From Candidatus Spongiisociaceae bacterium (GTDB taxonomy: Bacteria > Actinomycetota > Acidimicrobiia > Spongiisociales > Spongiisociaceae), in assembly GCA_965219685.1 (NCBI GenBank), contig CBDCOH010000002.1:768001-832000 (forward strand): a stretch of 64,000 nt of DNA, given 5' to 3'. The notes beneath the pieces were generated by a model. That model searched no databases. It was given only the letters and a program-made list of their open reading frames with translations, and was not told where the DNA came from. The stretch's first letter is position 1; every line of letters starts with the position of its first letter. Shown here in pieces: positions 39,265 to 46,414 of this stretch. Both the position numbers and the translations under genes were made by a program.

Positions 39265-42200
39265 TTGAGTTGCGGGTCGGTGTATCGGCAAGGCGTCACG
39301 TCCCGGGTGTTGGCCGCCGTGCTGTCCGCGCTGGTGGTGGGATCAGGTCTGGCTTCCGTGCCGGGTGCTGCCGCACAGTCCGCCAGCTTTGATGATGTCG
39401 CGCCCGACAACGTCCACACGCCCCATATCGAGGGGTTGGACCGGTTGGGAGTTTTCGAGGGTACGGAGTGCGGCGAGAGCCTGTTCTGCCCGCAGAAGCC
39501 GTTACCGCGCTGGGTGATGGCTGTGTGGATGGTGCGGTTGCTGGCCACCGGCGAGCCGGCTAAGGAGTCAGGCGGTTCGCGGTTCGCGGACGTGGACGCC
39601 GACGAGTGGTGGGTGCCCTATGTGGAGCGGTTCGATGATCTGGGGATCACCGTGGGCTGTGACGCGGGGCCGCCGCGGCGGTACTGTCCGGATGAATTCG
39701 TGAGCCGGGGGCAGATGGCGACCTTCCTGGCGAGAGCGTTCGATCTGCAGTCCGGGGCCGAGGCGGGGTTCGCTGACGTTTCGGGCGGTGTCCATGCCCC
39801 TCAGATCAACGCGTTGGCGGCTTCGGGCATCACCGTGGGTTGTGACGTGGGGCCGCCGCGGCGGTACTGTCCGGATGAATTCGTGAGCCGGGGGCAGATG
39901 GCCTCCTTCCTCAAGCGGGCTCGAACCGCCTTCATGGGGCCGTGTCCCGATGCAGAGTCTCAGGAAGCCACCGGCGGCGGGGATGGCGGCTCGGGAGGAG
40001 GGTCCGGAACAAGCACCGGTTCCGGTGGCTCGGGCCCCGCTGGTCCGGGCGGCCCGCCGCAGGGTCCTCCGCCTTCCCTGCCTGCTCCGGTCCAACCTCC
40101 CCCGGACGCGCCGCAGTCGCTGGAAGTCGATCCCGGTGAGGCAAGCTTGAGGGTTAGCTGGAGTCCGCCCGATCACAGCGGGCCGGGCGTCGTCGGGTAC
40201 CGACTGCGGTGGAAGGGTCCCGGCCAGGGGTACAGCGACACCGACAGGTCGGACGCCACCACCGCTTTGAGCTACGAGATCACCGATCTGGCCAATGGCG
40301 CAAAGTACGACGTTCAGGTCGCGGCCGGCATCCGGGGCATAGGTTTCGGGGGTTGGTCCGAGGCTTCCGGCACACCCCGTACGGTGCCCCATGCGCCAAG
40401 GTCGCCAAGAGTGTCCAACGGTGACGAGAAGCTCACGGTGAGCTGGACGGCGCCGGCGGCGAACGGCGGGGCGCCGGTGACCGGCTACCGCGTGGAGTGG
40501 TCCTCCGACGGCGTGACACTCGGCGAAGAGAGCGCGACCGGCCTGAACCATGAAATCGAGGACCTGACCAACGGCACCGACTATGTGGTGCGAGTGGCCG
40601 CAGTGAATGCAGCGGGTGCGGGACCCTGGTCGGTTGAGGCCGAGGGCTCGCCGGTCGGAACCCCGGACGCCCCCCAGGTTGTCAGTACCGAGCCGGGAGA
40701 CAGGTCGGTGACGATCGAGTGGTCGCCACCGACCGACGATGGCAGTTCGGCGATCACCGGGTACAAGGTGCAGTGGCGTTCCGGCACGCAGGAGTACAGC
40801 TCGAGCCGCCAGAGGGGGGTGGCCGCGGACGTCTCGGAGTACGAGGTCACCGGTCTGGTCAATGGCACGGAGTACGAGGTTCGGGTGGTCGCGGTGAACG
40901 CGGTGGGCGACGGCGAGCCCTCGATGGGAGCATCCGCCACCCCCGCAACCACGCCCGGACCACCGCGCACGGTGCTAGTGGCGCGGGGTGACGCGTCGGG
41001 GACGGTGGCGTGGTCGTCACCGTCCGCAGCCGGAGGCAAACCGGTCACCGGTTACGTCGTCCAGTGGTCCGACGACGAGTTCGACCAATCTGTCAACGAG
41101 GCTCAGGTAGCGGCGGACGTCTCGGAGTACGAGATCTCCGGTCTGGTCAATGGCACGGAGTACGAGGTTCGGGTGGTCGCGGTGAACGCGGTGGGCGACG
41201 GCGAGCCGTCGCAGGGCGCGTCCCTGACCCCGGCGACTGTTCCGGGCGCGCCCGCTGATCTGGACGTCGCCCGTGGCGTCCGATCCGTGACCGTTTCGTG
41301 GGGAGCGCCCAGCGATGGCGGATCGGCTATCACGGCTTACCGGGTGCAGTGGCGCGCCGACGACGGCGACTTCGAGGACTCGGATACACAGGCTTCGGTC
41401 GCCGGCGGTTCTTTGAGCCGCCGGATCACCGGTTTGGTCAACGGCACGGAGTACTTTGTTCGGGTGGTCGCGGTGAACGCTGTGGGTGAGGGGCCCTGGT
41501 CCTCGGTCGCTTCGTCCACCCCGGCGGTGGTGCCCGGACCGCCGCAGAACGTCGCAGTCACACCGGCCAACGGGTCGGTCACAGCAACCTGGCAGGTCCC
41601 TGCGAGCACCGGCGGCTCGCCGATCACCAGTTACAAGGTGCAGTGGCGGGCCGAGAGCGAAGGGTACGACTCCGGGCGTCAGGCCGCCGTGACCGACCTG
41701 GACGATCTGAGTTACGAGATCACCGGCCTGAGCAACGGGACGAAGTATTTCATTCGGGTGGTCGCGGTCAACGCGGTCGGCGATGGGGCCGCGCCCAAGG
41801 AGCTTGCGGCCACGCCTGTCACCAGTCCGGAAGCTCCCGGGAAGGTTGCCGCCGAGCGGGGGGACCGCGCCGTGACGGCAACCTGGGAGGCTGCCGACGA
41901 CGGTGGCTCGGACATAACGCGGTACAGGGTGCAGTGGCGCGCGGGCGATGACAAGTTCAAGGATTCGGATTCTCAGGCCACGGTCGGTGGGAGCGTTTCG
42001 AGCCGGCGGATCACGGGTCTCACCAATGGCACCGAGTACTGGGTGCGGGTGCAGGCGACCAACAGTGTGGGTGACGGGCCGTGGTCGGCGTCGGCGTCCG
42101 CGGTGGCGGCGACCGTCCCGGGCGCGCCCGGCAGCGTTGTCGCCGGGCGGGGCGACCGTTCGATAACCGTGACGTGGCAGGCGCCGTCCGCCACTGGCGG

Positions 42201-43836
42201 TCTGGCGATCACGGCGTACAAGGTGCAGTGGCGCACCGAGGACGAGACGTACGGAGAGGAGGGTCGCGAGGCCGATGTGACCGATGTGACCGATCTGAGT
42301 TACGAGATCACCGGTTTGGTCAACGGTACGAAGTACTTCGTGCAGGTGTTTGCGGTCAACGACGCCGGCGACAGCGCAGCGTCCGCGCAACGGTCGGCCA
42401 CGCCGGCGACCCTTCCGGGTGCGCCGGATGATGTGACGCTCCAGACGCGGGACCGGTCGCTCGACGTGTCCTGGGAGGCTGCCGACGACGGCGGCTCGGA
42501 CATAACGCGGTACAGGGTGCAGTGGCGCGCGGGCGATGACAAGTTCAAGGATTCGGACTCTCAGGCCACGGTCGGTGGGAGCGTTTCGAGCCGGCGGATC
42601 ACGGGTCTCACCAATGGCACCGAGTACTGGGTGCGGGTGCAGGCGACCAACAGTGTGGGTGACGGGCCGTGGTCGGCGTCGGCGTCCGCGGTGGCGGCGA
42701 CCGTCCCGGGCACCCCTCTGAGCATCTCCGCGGTTCCGGACGACGGGTCGGTCACGGTGAGCTGGCAGGCGCCGGACGACGGCGGCTCCGACATCACCGG
42801 GTACCTCGTGGAGTGGCGCGGCGCCGACGAGAAGTTCAGCGAGACCGAACGCCGGCTCACCACCACCGATGTCTCCCAGCAGATCACGGGTCTCACCAAT
42901 GGCGACGAGTACTCGGCGCGGGTCCGGGCGGTGAACGCCGCCGGCACCGGCCCTGCCGCGACTGCTTCGGCGACTCCCCGCACCGTGCCTGCCGCTCCCG
43001 GCGACATCAGCATCACGATCTCGACCGCCCTGGTCATGCTGGTGTCGTGGGATCCACCGGACGACGACGGCGGGTCGTCGATCACCGGCTACGGAGTGGA
43101 GTGGAAGGGTCCCGACGAGGAGTACAGCGCGACAGAGCGCCAAGCGACCGTGACGAGCCCGCGCCATCAGATCTCGGGCCTGACCAAGGGTGAGGAGTAC
43201 ACCCTGAGGATCGCCGCGAGGAACGTCGCCGGATCAGGTCCGGCAGCCGAGGCTTCTGCGGTAGTGGCTGATCCGCCGGGCGCGCCGCGCTCGCAGACCG
43301 TGACGGCACACCACGGCGCCCTGGAAGTGTCATGGCAAGCGCCGTCCGATGCCGGTGGATCCGCGATAACCGAGTACCGCGTGCTGTGGAAGGGTCCGGG
43401 CCAGAACTTCGACGACTCGAAGTGCTCGTTCCGGCGGATCAGGATCTCGGCCAGCGAGACTTTGACCGCCGCGATAGGAGAGCTCCGGAACGGTACGACG
43501 TACAGCATTCGGGTCGTGGCCGTGAACGACAGCGGCCCCGGGGCGCCCCTGGACTTCTCGGGTACGCCCGCGGCGCCCTCGGGACTGAGGCTTGGTCCGG
43601 TTGCTTCGCTCCGGGACCGAAGCCTGGCAGTGGGCCGGAACCAACCGCGCCACATTGGGTCGCCGGCCACCGGCAACCGGGTGGAGTGGACAGGAGTGGA
43701 GCGGTACTACCGCGCCTCGGATCGTTTGGCCACGGTCGGCCCAACTCTGAGACGAACAATCAACGGCACTCGACAAGGGAGGCGACATGAGTCAAGAAGC
43801 ACCCGGCCCCGCGGGCGGAGGCCTGTCCGACCGTGA
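39265..43836 (+). CDS. Large surface protein: signal peptide, 3 SLH-like repeats, Gly/Pro linker, 12 fibronectin type III domains and a degenerate 13th
   Basis: GC...YCP...SRGQMA.FL repeats; twelve P.AP...V.W..P...GG..ITGY.VQW...GL.NGT.Y.VRV.A.N..G units. Start codon uncertain. Confidence 0.9.
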   Translation: MSCGSVYRQGVTSRVLAAVLSALVVGSGLASVPGAAAQSASFDDVAPDNVHTPHIEGLDRLGVFEGTECGESLFCPQKPLPRWVMAVWMVRLLATGEPAKESGGSRFADVDADEWWVPYVERFDDLGITVGCDAGPPRRYCPDEFVSRGQMATFLARAFDLQSGAEAGFADVSGGVHAPQINALAASGITVGCDVGPPRRYCPDEFVSRGQMASFLKRARTAFMGPCPDAESQEATGGGDGGSGGGSGTSTGSGGSGPAGPGGPPQGPPPSLPAPVQPPPDAPQSLEVDPGEASLRVSWSPPDHSGPGVVGYRLRWKGPGQGYSDTDRSDATTALSYEITDLANGAKYDVQVAAGIRGIGFGGWSEASGTPRTVPHAPRSPRVSNGDEKLTVSWTAPAANGGAPVTGYRVEWSSDGVTLGEESATGLNHEIEDLTNGTDYVVRVAAVNAAGAGPWSVEAEGSPVGTPDAPQVVSTEPGDRSVTIEWSPPTDDGSSAITGYKVQWRSGTQEYSSSRQRGVAADVSEYEVTGLVNGTEYEVRVVAVNAVGDGEPSMGASATPATTPGPPRTVLVARGDASGTVAWSSPSAAGGKPVTGYVVQWSDDEFDQSVNEAQVAADVSEYEISGLVNGTEYEVRVVAVNAVGDGEPSQGASLTPATVPGAPADLDVARGVRSVTVSWGAPSDGGSAITAYRVQWRADDGDFEDSDTQASVAGGSLSRRITGLVNGTEYFVRVVAVNAVGEGPWSSVASSTPAVVPGPPQNVAVTPANGSVTATWQVPASTGGSPITSYKVQWRAESEGYDSGRQAAVTDLDDLSYEITGLSNGTKYFIRVVAVNAVGDGAAPKELAATPVTSPEAPGKVAAERGDRAVTATWEAADDGGSDITRYRVQWRAGDDKFKDSDSQATVGGSVSSRRITGLTNGTEYWVRVQATNSVGDGPWSASASAVAATVPGAPGSVVAGRGDRSITVTWQAPSATGGLAITAYKVQWRTEDETYGEEGREADVTDVTDLSYEITGLVNGTKYFVQVFAVNDAGDSAASAQRSATPATLPGAPDDVTLQTRDRSLDVSWEAADDGGSDITRYRVQWRAGDDKFKDSDSQATVGGSVSSRRITGLTNGTEYWVRVQATNSVGDGPWSASASAVAATVPGTPLSISAVPDDGSVTVSWQAPDDGGSDITGYLVEWRGADEKFSETERRLTTTDVSQQITGLTNGDEYSARVRAVNAAGTGPAATASATPRTVPAAPGDISITISTALVMLVSWDPPDDDGGSSITGYGVEWKGPDEEYSATERQATVTSPRHQISGLTKGEEYTLRIAARNVAGSGPAAEASAVVADPPGAPRSQTVTAHHGALEVSWQAPSDAGGSAITEYRVLWKGPGQNFDDSKCSFRRIRISASETLTAAIGELRNGTTYSIRVVAVNDSGPGAPLDFSGTPAAPSGLRLGPVASLRDRSLAVGRNQPRHIGSPATGNRVEWTGVERYYRASDRLATVGPTLRRTINGTRQGRRHESRSTRPRGRRPVRP

Positions 43837-44131
43837 GGAGCCTTCCGCGTCAGTACGGGAGTCGGGTACGTACGAGGCCGACGCCGACCCGGATCACGTC
43901 TGGGTGAAGCGCGATGCCAACGGTGAGACCATTCGAGCGAGGTTCAGGGGCTATCCCGTCGACTTCGCATTCGAGGCCGGGGATGCGACCGGAATCGAGC
44001 TCGTGGACGGGGAGTGGCACACCATTCCCTCGGTCTTTCACACCGTCCGGCTCGGCAGCCGTATCGAGTGGTGGACGATGAACCGCCGCACGGGCTTCTT
44101 CCGGCTGCTGTCCGAGAGGACTCTCGATTGA
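43787..44131 (+). CDS. Hypothetical protein, first gene of the Cys-peptide/mau-like operon
   Basis: GGGAGG RBS before ATG 43787; 114 aa, aromatic and beta-rich; no recognised family. Confidence 0.65.
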   Translation: MSQEAPGPAGGGLSDREEPSASVRESGTYEADADPDHVWVKRDANGETIRARFRGYPVDFAFEAGDATGIELVDGEWHTIPSVFHTVRLGSRIEWWTMNRRTGFFRLLSERTLD

Positions 44132-44168: not shown

Positions 44169-44489
44169 GTGCCCGACATGACGGCTGTACGAGACCCGAG
44201 AGACAGGCGATGGTTCCTGCGCTCAGTCGCCGGCGCGGCGCTGGGCCTGGTGACCGTAGGGGCCCAGGCCCTGTTCGGGGCTTCTCCCGCCTTGGCCCGG
44301 TATTCGTGTTGTGTGCTATTGCACGGCAACGACCCGTGGTGCCCCGTGACCTGCGCCGGGTTGGGTCACCACATCAGGTGCTGGACGTGTTGGGAAAACT
44401 CGTGTAAATGCTGTGAGTGCACCAACGGCAACTCTTGTTGGGGATCCGAGACCTTCTGCTCGTACGAATTCGAGTGTTGTCCGGGATGA
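44169..44489 (+). CDS. Tat-exported cysteine-rich peptide (14 Cys, 4 Trp in an ~63-aa mature region)
   Basis: DRRWFL Tat motif, hydrophobic stretch, SPALA cleavage site, then RYSCC...CWTCWENSCKCCECTNGNSCWGSETFCSYEFECCPG. Start may be ATG 44178. Confidence 0.85.
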   Translation: MPDMTAVRDPRDRRWFLRSVAGAALGLVTVGAQALFGASPALARYSCCVLLHGNDPWCPVTCAGLGHHIRCWTCWENSCKCCECTNGNSCWGSETFCSYEFECCPG

Positions 44490-44541
44490 TGGCGTTCAGG
44501 CGCCGGCGCTGCACACCATGTCGCCCGGGAGGTTACTGACG

Positions 44542-45126
44542 ATGCCAATTCTGGCTGATCTGGCCGTGATGGGGTCTGCTTCGATCCTGCTGCTCACCGG
44601 ATCCTCCAAGCTCGTGCGGCCGAGCCCCATCGCCGCGACCCTGGCCATGCTCTGGAATACGGTGACCGGGCAGGATCGCGAGGCTGCGCCACCGATGCTG
44701 GGCCGGCTTCTGGGCGTGGGTGAGATGGGTCTGGCGGCGGCCACGGTCGTCGGGCGTTCTCCCGCCACAGCGGTTGCCCTCGCTCTGTTCGCCATTGGCC
44801 TGGCGGGCGCCGGGGTGATCGGTGTGATGAGCGACGGGAAGCTTCCGTGCGCCTGTTTCGGCGCGTCCGACCGCTCTCTCGGCTATCCGCACATCCTCCA
44901 ACTCCCGCTGTGGTTGGTAACTGCCTGGGCGGTCACGGGAGACCCGGCGCTGTTCGGGACCGGCGCAGGGCTCGAGCAGGGACTCGCCATGCTCGCAGTC
45001 TGCGCCATCGCGTCGACGGCGTTCCACGTGGCGAAAATGTGGCACGCGGTCTACCCGATCGTGCGACAAGGGAGGCGCGGCACGGCTGATCGTGCTGCAT
45101 TCCAGGCAGGCTCGGGAGGGTCGTAG
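44542..45126 (+). CDS. MauE/DoxX-family membrane protein
   Basis: GGAGG RBS; LLLTGSSKL, GVGEMGLA, LPCACFG (MauE C-x-C-F-G). Confidence 0.8.
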   Translation: MPILADLAVMGSASILLLTGSSKLVRPSPIAATLAMLWNTVTGQDREAAPPMLGRLLGVGEMGLAAATVVGRSPATAVALALFAIGLAGAGVIGVMSDGKLPCACFGASDRSLGYPHILQLPLWLVTAWAVTGDPALFGTGAGLEQGLAMLAVCAIASTAFHVAKMWHAVYPIVRQGRRGTADRAAFQAGSGGS

Positions 45127-45719
45127 TGGTGCTCGCCGCCCTACTTATCTCGATCGTGGCGCTGCTGTTGTCCGGCTTGGTCGCGTTGGCGGTAATGGAG
45201 TTGGCGGCTGACCGGTCCCCTGCCCAGAGCGAGCCCGCCGCCGACGTGGTGGAGGGATTCGAACTCCCCCCGGAAGCTGAGGGGACTGCCGCCAGCAGGC
45301 ACGGGCTGCCCCGGTCTATCGACGAGACGGCCACCCACCTGGTGCTTGTCGTCTCTCCGGTTTGCGCCACGTGCCAGAAGCTGGTCGCCTCCTTCGACGG
45401 TGCCATACCCGACGGTCTGACGGTCGTGGTCACCGCCTCCGACCCGCTCCGGATGCGCAGGTGGGCTACGGGCCATGGGCTGTCGACCGGGGATCTGGTC
45501 TTCGACGACGACATGTCCATCGTGAACGGACTAGGCGTTTCCTCAAGCCCTGCTGCAGTCGGGTTCATCCGTGGAAAGGCGGCATTCGCAGTCAATCTGG
45601 GCGGGCGTCCGGCTCTCGACGACCTGCTGGCGCGGCGCGCCACGATCCCGGAGGAGGTTACGAGTCAGGCTGCCTCCGATCCGGACTCGCGCCCGGACAG
45701 CAAGGGCCACGGCCGGTGA
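45126..45719 (+). CDS. MauD-like membrane-anchored thioredoxin-fold protein
   Basis: N-terminal TM helix; VSPVCATCQKL (CxxC); LGVSSSPAAV cis-Pro loop; start overlaps the mauE-like stop. Confidence 0.78.
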   Translation: MVLAALLISIVALLLSGLVALAVMELAADRSPAQSEPAADVVEGFELPPEAEGTAASRHGLPRSIDETATHLVLVVSPVCATCQKLVASFDGAIPDGLTVVVTASDPLRMRRWATGHGLSTGDLVFDDDMSIVNGLGVSSSPAAVGFIRGKAAFAVNLGGRPALDDLLARRATIPEEVTSQAASDPDSRPDSKGHGR

Positions 45720-46414
45720 CAGGGACTTGGGCAACGATGCCGGAGATCCTGTCCGCAGGCACCCTGCTGGTGGGCGGCCTCTTGCAGCGTTACAGCCCTT
45801 GAGGCATTTCCTTCGTGGGCCAGTTCGGCCCCACCTTCGCGGCTGCCAGGGGCGCTCGACGGTTCTCGGACAGCGGGGTCTACGTGCTCGGGGTGCTGGC
45901 GTCCTCGGCGGTGTTCATGTTCGCGCTGGATGCGGTCGGGATCAGCTTCCGGGGGGCCACGGGCGTCCGGGGCGCCCTGGTCGCAGCGCTTACCCTGACA
46001 TGCCTGCTGCTGGTGGTGGACGCGGTCAGGTTGTGGGGCGGACGTGTCACCTCCGTCGGACTCCACCGGCAGACCCCGTACGGTTGGCGCTTGAAGGGTC
46101 CCATCGGTGTTCTCGGCTGGGGTCTCGACACCGGCCTGCCCGTCTCGACGGTCAGGGTCACGTCACTGCCCGTGCTTGGCGTGATCCTCGCCGCCACGGG
46201 CCACGCGGGACCGTTCCACGGGCTGTTCTACGGCTGCGGCCTGGCGCTCGGGGTCTTCGCCGGGATGATGTCGGTACGCTCAGGCGTGCGCGCCGACCGG
46301 GCCGTCGACGAGCTCCTGCGAAGGTACCGGGGGCTGAGACCCGTCCCTCTCGTACTCGGACCGAGCGGCATGACGTCAGCCGTCCTGGCCGGGTCCCTGG
46401 TGTTCTTGCCCTAG
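45716..46414 (+). CDS. MauF-like membrane protein with in-frame UGA at 45800-45802 (candidate selenocysteine)
   Basis: GTG start overlaps the previous stop (GTGA). The frame reads ...GGLLQRYSP-TGA-GISFVGQFGP... and continues to 46414. MauF has WSPCG.S at this position, and HRQTPYGW...GWGLDTG matches the MauF C-terminal motif. Confidence 0.7.
45803..45847 (+). promoter_or_regulatory. Candidate bacterial SECIS hairpin directly 3' of the UGA
   Basis: GTGGGCC-AGTTC-GGCCCCAC upper stem-loop (45815-45834); loop starts 19 nt after the UGA with G second in the loop; possible lower pair GGCA/TGCC. Confidence 0.5.

Follow-up and report, generated by a model that had tools for sequence, protein, structure and literature searches.

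In genetic work of the 1990s, mutants in mauF, mauE and mauD were reported not to produce the methylamine dehydrogenase small subunit. CcdA and DsbD are small polytopic membrane proteins with a Pro-Cys in a transmembrane (TM) segment, and they supply thioredoxin-like proteins outside the cytoplasm with reducing power; CcdA uses two cysteines. Here we describe a gene at positions 45716-46414 of a 64,000-nucleotide stretch of high-GC DNA from Candidatus Spongiisociaceae bacterium (contig C2, 768001-832000), called the window in the following. The genome has 4.42 Mb in 2 contigs and is 96.7% complete. The gene is interrupted by an in-frame UGA and very probably encodes a selenocysteine (Sec)-containing homologue of MauF. 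With known SelB-decoded bacterial selenoproteins such as FdhA and SelD it has in common the in-frame UGA, homologues with Cys, a downstream hairpin with a G early in the loop and a genome that carries selA, selB, selC and selD. Its product is predicted to be an integral membrane protein, which is uncommon among the families in Table 1 of a 2026 review (PMC13188914).

For the comparison, the genuine mau cluster was located on plasmid 1 of Paracoccus denitrificans PD1222 through its MauD. The MauF encoded there (NC_008688.1 216737-217570) reads ...LLSTWSPCGYSSISLL... and later RRAQVPHDARQRF. Both proteins carry W/Y-S-P-C/U-G-x-S after the first helix; in MauF this is TWSPCGYSS, as the preliminary description of the window had stated (WSPCGxS). 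The later R-Q-x-P motif, also ascribed there to MauF, was borne out in part: the window protein has HRQTPYGW (residues 117-124) and MauF has RRAQVPHD, so that Q-x-P is common to both and the R is not. The window protein has Sec for the Cys of MauF and a shorter N-terminus (232 versus 277 amino acids). When a four-sequence profile of the family, A1, was compared with P. denitrificans MauF by hhalign, a probability of 96.8% was obtained (E 2.5e-10, 156 columns), which agrees with the earlier label of the protein as MauF-like.

Scans of Pfam and NCBIfam gave no family for the read-through protein, for a Cys form or for genuine MauF, so that the link to MauF depends on the profile comparison, and the read-through protein did not match the NCBIfam selenoprotein models. 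MauF itself has neither an NCBIfam nor a Pfam model, and the blank scans are explained by the missing NCBIfam model. Unlike the mau cluster, the window genome has no detectable MauA (TIGR02659) or MauB (TIGR02658) at its 96.7% completeness; run on the P. denitrificans plasmid, the MauA search did detect MauA. What appears to be the substrate here is a 14-Cys peptide not related to MauA. Because MauA and MauB were not found in the genome, the gene is filed as a MauF homologue and not as a methylamine-utilisation gene.

The in-frame UGA and its conservation

The gene and its elements are as follows.

45716..46414, + strand: candidate Sec-containing MauF homologue, 232 amino acids (aa), Sec (U) at residue 29, stop TAG at 46412-46414
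45800..45802, + strand: in-frame UGA, probably read as Sec, in the motif Y-S-P-U-G-I-S (residues 26-32); TGA in 65 loci
45815..46414, + strand: 199-aa open reading frame (ORF) with a GTG start, given in the public annotation instead of the full gene
45815..45834, + strand: candidate bacterial selenocysteine insertion sequence (SECIS) hairpin, with stem GUGGGCC (45815-45821), loop AGUUC (45822-45826) and GGCCCCAC (45827-45834)

The list of ORFs shows the gene as two parts, 45362..45802, which ends with QRYSP and the stop, and 45815..46414. Since 45815-45716 = 99, both parts lie in the frame of the GTG at 45716, as had been noted before, and read-through gives a protein of 232 aa that runs QRYSP-U-GISFVGQFGPTFAAAR across the Sec. 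The coupling of this start to the preceding gene was also confirmed: the GTG overlaps the TGA stop of ORF 45126..45719 as GTGA (45716-45719). An ATG at 45737 is a second possible start. Residues 8-26 ahead of the UGA form a hydrophobic helix in the translation and in the AlphaFold2 (AF2) model, in line with the TM helix proposed earlier, and this first helix was kept in all homologues read. The AF2 model of the read-through protein is all-helical and confident, with a predicted local distance difference test (pLDDT) score of 92.2 and a predicted template modelling (pTM) score of 0.89. A helix break lies exactly at S27-P28, just ahead of U29.

The codon at the SP-x-G column was read directly in the homologues. 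TGA was found in 65 loci and a Cys codon, TGC or TGT, in 12. With the read-through protein as query, homologues were obtained in 6 of 61 related genomes, at 31-100% identity, and all six carry TGA at SP*G. Of the 29 loci in a first set of direct reads, 25 had TGA and 4 had Cys; a second set of 40 comprised 30 with TGA, 8 with Cys and 2 without the motif. These two (L069 in genome G075 and L071 in G179), where the motif was not found in the stretch, stand outside the Sec/Cys counts. A pattern back-translated from SPCG did not match the contigs of the genomes, as TGA takes the place of the Cys codon there; rescanning the contigs with a downstream motif then yielded four named Acidimicrobiales loci, all four with TGA. 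P. denitrificans MauF has Cys at the same column. TGA thus stays at the same alignment column even in relatives with no more than about 30% identity, and the residue aligned with U in the homologues without TGA is always Cys.

The A1 profile was run on 401 sampled genomes of the phylum, Actinomycetota by their labels. It gave 74 matches in 72 of the genomes; 59 of these, in 57 genomes, had an in-frame TGA and 15 had none. Four A1 matches (G268, G445, G345, G339) are outside the direct codon reads. Nine of the 57 TGA-form genomes are unpublished (G106, G322, G281, G229, G177, G293, G061, G077, G445; loci L044, L055, L072, L084, L088, L092, L094, L099), and the unpublished genomes G204, G372, G390, G397 and G146 count only in the selA tally described below. 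When all unpublished genomes were dropped, 48 TGA-form genomes remained and every conclusion stood.

A tree was calculated with FastTree from 76 rows (63 Sec, 13 Cys), with L002 and L006 left out. It placed the window protein in an all-Sec clade of 8 and requires at least 4 changes between Sec and Cys, 2 of them forced by well-supported branches. P. denitrificans MauF came to lie beside a long branch, and its placement is unreliable.

Elsewhere in the window TGA is the commonest stop and ends 14 of 21 long ORFs with a high GC content at the third codon position (GC3); the standard genetic code is therefore used. In public sequencing runs, TGA was present in the contigs of X1, X2, X4 and X5. 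The X1, X2 and X4 contigs are identical over the gene and share one sample of origin, from which the assembly may also derive; the X5 contig comes from a different, independent study and shows 4 differences, none in the TGA. With TGA in 65 loci and in the contigs of four runs, the codon is neither a chance event nor a sequencing error.

Some single observations were made along with these reads. A 34-nt stretch of the gene (46239-46272) matches a second, more deeply covered contig of X1, X2 and X4 with 4 differences, which may be a short sequence shared with elsewhere in that sample. In the congeneric orthologue L002 (G007:C12:29834-30427) a second TGA replaces a conserved Trp and the frame is disturbed, so that this copy looks decayed. 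The matches L039 (G335) and L041 (G110) were scored with 2 in-frame TGAs, of which one was located, at the motif.

Hairpin and selenocysteine machinery

The sequence of the hairpin is as had been described: its loop lies 19 nt from the UGA and a G is the second base of the loop. On folding, the 24-nt hairpin has -10.7 kcal/mol and z -2.19, with 7 of 200 shuffles as stable. The wider 64-nt stretch is unremarkable in stability (z +0.59). The hairpin was kept in 8 of 8 members of the window clade (L001-L004, L057-L060), in L058 by means of a G-U pair. In L004 a stem of 7-9 bp is retained through changes on both arms (z -4.41). An Rfam scan of 45600-46000 gave no matching family and one match at chance level.

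The sister clade is larger and allows a cleaner test. Here, a 6-bp hairpin of the form GAUG[C/G]U-NNNN-A[G/C]CAUC starts 8 nt after the UGA. Its pairs are formed to a mean of 5.34 out of 6 in 61 Sec forms, which include six window-clade sequences paired in another register; for the 13 Cys forms the mean is 3.08 (Mann-Whitney p 3e-7). The Cys forms have the same or similar residues here, encoded by codons that do not pair. At pair 16-23, GC was found in 29 and CG in 23 of 55 Sec sequences. Altogether 85.4% of the hairpin cells were paired versus 74.9% in shuffles; none of 500 shuffles reached this value, and the slid controls were all lower. A second covarying hairpin at +29 to +47 was found in some Cys forms too.

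The genes for Sec synthesis and insertion were all found in the host genome above the curated cut-offs: selD with 366.9 bits, selA with 435.7 bits, selB, which adjoins selA, with 322.7 bits, and selC, the tRNA-Sec, with 77 bits, which ARAGORN also calls as tRNA-SeC with the anticodon TCA. They lie on contig C2 at 2.56-2.82 Mb, far outside the window, in agreement with the earlier observation that the window has no sel genes. The SelD of the genome itself is predicted to contain Sec, with an in-frame TGA in SPGAG-U-ASK (G000:C2:2564589-2565512 (-), locus L007), and Sec decoding should therefore be in active use.

The presence of selA, at a threshold of E <= 1e-30, was compared in the same 401 genomes. 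The gene was found in 52 of the 57 genomes with the TGA form, in 6 of the 15 with the Cys form and in 209 of the 329 that remain; as the genomes are related, Fisher p-values for this tally overstate the case. Five TGA-form genomes gave no selA match. In three of them (G039, G164, G445) a tRNA-Sec scoring 77-81 bits lies close to the end of a contig, and in a fourth, G290, a C-terminal fragment of selA was found.

The recoding of the UGA as Sec is supported by this comparative evidence, because the TGA is conserved, Cys stands at the same column elsewhere, a hairpin follows on the 3' side, the Sec machinery is complete and the TGA form co-occurs with selA. Several points weigh on the other side. 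All of this evidence is comparative. The stem of the window hairpin encodes the conserved peptide VGQFGP, and this coding constraint explains part of the conservation; for this reason the hairpin of the window clade counts as moderate evidence, and compensating changes are seen there in L004 only. The two covarying hairpin types of the sister clade follow two subclades, which leaves few independent events. One TGA-form genome, the unpublished G229, has neither selA nor a convincing tRNA-Sec at 96% completeness. Taken together, the results strongly suggest that the single invariant Cys of the MauF family, which follows the first TM helix in S-P-C/U-G-x-S, is replaced by Sec in the polytopic window protein, and that the UGA at 45800-45802 is decoded by the organism's own SelA, SelB, tRNA-Sec and SelD, guided by the candidate hairpin at 45815-45834.

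Neighbouring genes and alternative readings

The Sec gene is the last of a small cassette, which has the following neighbours.

39265-43836, + strand: 1523-aa ORF directly upstream of the cassette, carrying 12 fibronectin type III repeats and, near the N-terminus, a weak match to S-layer homology
43787..44131, + strand: 114-aa protein with no family above threshold; tblastn matches beside the cassette in L057, L058 and L059
44169..44489, + strand: 106-aa twin-arginine precursor (RRWFLRS) with about 60 mature residues including 14 Cys, the candidate substrate of the cassette
44413..45126, + strand: MauE-family membrane protein with a C-x-C-F motif (Pfam PF07291, E 6.6e-8)
45126..45719, + strand: membrane-anchored thioredoxin-like protein with CxxC (SPVCATCQ) and a MauD-like architecture, from the translation

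The last three genes, for the MauE protein, the CxxC protein and the Sec protein, overlap in their stop and start codons; the real start of the MauE gene is probably the ATG at 44518 or 44542. In P. denitrificans mauF likewise clusters with the genes of MauE and MauD, and the window gene stands near a MauE gene and a weakly MauD-like gene. The CxC was invariant in 11 of 11 aligned MauE proteins, among them that of P. denitrificans and the two fused domains described below. The CxxC gene is conserved beside the Sec gene in relatives and its product gave no Pfam or NCBIfam match. The mature Cys-rich peptide has the pattern CC..WCP..C..RCWTC..CxCCEC..C..CS..CC, in which 9 Cys columns were invariant in an alignment of 5 homologues. 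In L004, L057, L058 and L059 its gene likewise lies beside the Sec gene. No Pfam or NCBIfam family was found for the peptide. As a relative of MauA it was rejected (hhalign probability 3.7%).

In L003, L004 and L057-L060 too, the Sec gene stands with the gene set of the cassette, in an order that differs between loci. The Sec genes of the sister clade have as neighbours MauE (E 3e-11) and an anchored thioredoxin-like protein with a weak match to MauD (TIGR02661), and further a conserved protein of about 165 aa and a twin-arginine-signal protein. The about 165-aa protein, which starts with ...GHGI..LPxGWEG..., follows the Sec gene in L032, L033, L037, L038, L040, L045, L049 and L052. The twin-arginine-signal protein comes next after it in L032, L045 and L052, with LGFP repeats in L045.

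Two loci, L051:1570-2685 (G452) and L053:1564-2691 (G251), encode MauF-MauE fusions with 372 and 376 aa after the TGA, which tie the two families together. The C-terminal domain of the L051 fusion matched MauE (PF07291, E 2.6e-19) in a Pfam scan of L051 only; in L053 the C-terminal part can be aligned with MauE and has the CxC. The second gene upstream of the L051 fusion encodes a clear MauD (TIGR02661, E 7e-29), and the gene in between a twin-arginine-signal protein.

From the MauE and CxxC neighbours, the overlapping stop and start codons, the MauF-MauE fusions, the invariant CxC and the Cys-rich twin-arginine peptide we infer, with an even chance, a selenol/thiol relay that would serve an exported Cys-rich protein. 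In this relay, the selenol of U29 would work with the two invariant cysteines (CxC) of MauE and the CxxC of the anchored MauD-like thioredoxin. The order would be the Sec of MauF, the CxC of MauE, the CxxC of the MauD-like protein and the Cys-rich client, where neither the direction of the electrons nor the side of the membrane is implied. The relay would set or repair the disulphide state of the co-encoded twin-arginine-exported 14-Cys peptide, and the cassette would be a MauD-E-F-like module used without methylamine dehydrogenase. A selenium-dependent thiol-redox relay for peptide maturation had been proposed in the preliminary description; it keeps its conditional standing and is strengthened by the MauE and CxxC neighbours, the fusions and the Cys-rich peptide.

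The comparison with CcdA and DsbD bears on this mechanism. Only one invariant Cys/Sec was found in the alignments of the family and not the two conserved TM cysteines of the CcdA/DsbD type; the further cysteines may come from MauE. Foldseek comparison of the model with the PDB gave no match at E <= 0.001. Among the PDB matches, CcdA (5vkv) had the highest TM-score with 0.36/0.37 at a Foldseek E of 1.1, which is not significant. Searching the PDB sequences with a profile brought up no meaningful match, and DsbD_TM (PF02683) and DsbD_2 (PF13386) were not matched in Pfam at E up to 1-5. A language-model neighbour search pointed to clusters with DsbD_2 (PF13386), among them an ArsG-type efflux permease cluster, with scores of 0.88 and 0.82, which serve as weak leads only. 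The lone conserved redox residue and the lack of a resembling structure in the PDB count against the relay. The same applies to the weak similarity of the CxxC protein to P. denitrificans MauD (hhalign probability 16%, E 0.0015, with the CxxC aligned) and to the biochemical role of MauF, which was not found in the searchable literature.

A different function of the Sec residue has also to be weighed. The protein could be a genuine selenoprotein but a carrier or channel, in which the Sec/Cys passes a metal, a metalloid or a sulphur or selenium species, for example to load a cofactor into the Cys-rich peptide. The DsbD_2 leads with their ArsG-type efflux permease cluster would fit, as would a single conserved redox residue; twin-arginine export is typical of cofactor-bearing proteins, and a peptide with 14 Cys could bind metal. 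However, the partners that always recur are MauE with its invariant CxC and a CxxC protein of thioredoxin fold, which point to thiol-disulphide chemistry, and no metal-transport family was matched in Pfam or NCBIfam. We consider a carrier or channel unlikely.

The earlier proposal that the UGA is recoded had left Sec and Cys side by side, and here the comparison favours Sec through the TGA conservation, the hairpin, the sel genes and the link to selA. Reading of the UGA without the Sec machinery, by a near-cognate tRNA (Trp, Cys or Arg) or as a leaky regulatory stop, is very improbable. It could draw on the fact that residue 29 is identified as Sec by sequence comparison and that the 64-nt region 3' of the UGA is not unusually stable. 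Yet it would not account for a TGA form that tracks selA (52 of 57 versus 6 of 15 genomes), for a covarying hairpin specific for the Sec forms of the sister clade or for an aligned residue that is always Cys.

Even less probable is the reading of the public annotation as two genes, in which a short peptide would end at 45802 and the 199-aa protein would start independently from the GTG at 45815. This GTG does lie 12 nt past the stop, and gene callers give the 199-aa form. But the Cys forms and true MauF run continuously through this point, the upstream helix and the SP-U-G motif are kept in every homologue, and the first start codon past the TGA lies at a different place in many relatives.

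A nonsense mutation or sequencing error in a decaying gene, which one relative (L002 of G007) does resemble, is refuted by the codon reads and the run contigs, since the same codon stands in 65 loci of many genera and in contigs of four runs from two studies, the rest of the frame is intact and the structure model is confident. In conclusion, a Sec-containing MauF homologue together with a relay is the best explanation as a whole, with a probability of about 0.85.

Public records and meaning for the family

As the preliminary description had expected of gene callers, the public record is truncated: the exact 199-aa form is on record in a protein collection (sources NCBI and ENA). Public gene calls drop the first 33 residues, including the probable active site. 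In a library of 1.84 billion proteins 98 relatives were found; the alignments of nearly all start at query residue 32-35 or further on, and residues 1-31 are covered by none. The Cys forms are abundant, with 941 proteins at E <= 0.001 among 8000 candidates scored. Nearly all of the names shown for them were 'hypothetical protein' and a few 'MFS family permease', and none had a Pfam domain.

Table 1 of the 2026 review (PMC13188914), with 119 families or subfamilies, has no MauF entry and no SPUG-type motif, and its full text does not mention Mau, methylamine, transmembrane or Acidimicrobi. Nothing relevant was present in the available parts of the 2006 survey and of the 2008 Global Ocean Sampling (GOS) survey, or in the passages of the 2016 survey on new selenoproteins, membrane and Actinobacteria. 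The same holds for the available parts of the deep-Sep and BSepDB papers, where BSepDB or other supplementary lists could contain the family. A literature search for selenoproteins in connection with MauE or methylamine utilization gave nothing relevant, and of the best-ranked 25 out of 41 papers naming MauF none dealt with selenium. A 2026 preprint on Actinomarina, from another order of the Acidimicrobiia, gives about 5 selenoprotein candidates per genome from deep-Sep, most of them uncharacterised, and its available part does not name the family. On a comparison with the main published lists, the entry 'Hypothetical protein GOS_A' excepted, we rate the family as a new one among the ordinary bacterial selenoproteins, unlisted, widespread and mis-annotated, and not as categorically new.

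Selenoprotein members were predicted in 57 of the 401 sampled species of the phylum. As the public records hold a truncated hypothetical protein in their place, selenoproteome counts for the Acidimicrobiia and related lineages would be too low, and one profile could correct the annotation pipelines.

Replacement of Cys by Sec is recognised as marking a residue as redox-active. MauF thereby gains a definite candidate catalytic residue and a testable partnership with MauE and MauD, and the MauD-E-F module appears to occur without methylamine dehydrogenase, linked to other exported Cys-rich proteins. In its widest form, which we propose tentatively and regard as somewhat doubtful, MauE (CxC), MauF (Cys/Sec) and MauD (CxxC) would make up a three-protein TM thiol/selenol relay, widespread in the Actinomycetota and mostly selenium-using, that serves twin-arginine-exported Cys-rich proteins. 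If this is true, it would be a further envelope redox system beside DsbB/VKOR and DsbD/CcdA; methylamine dehydrogenase would be only one of its clients and the 14-Cys peptide of the window would represent a new client class.

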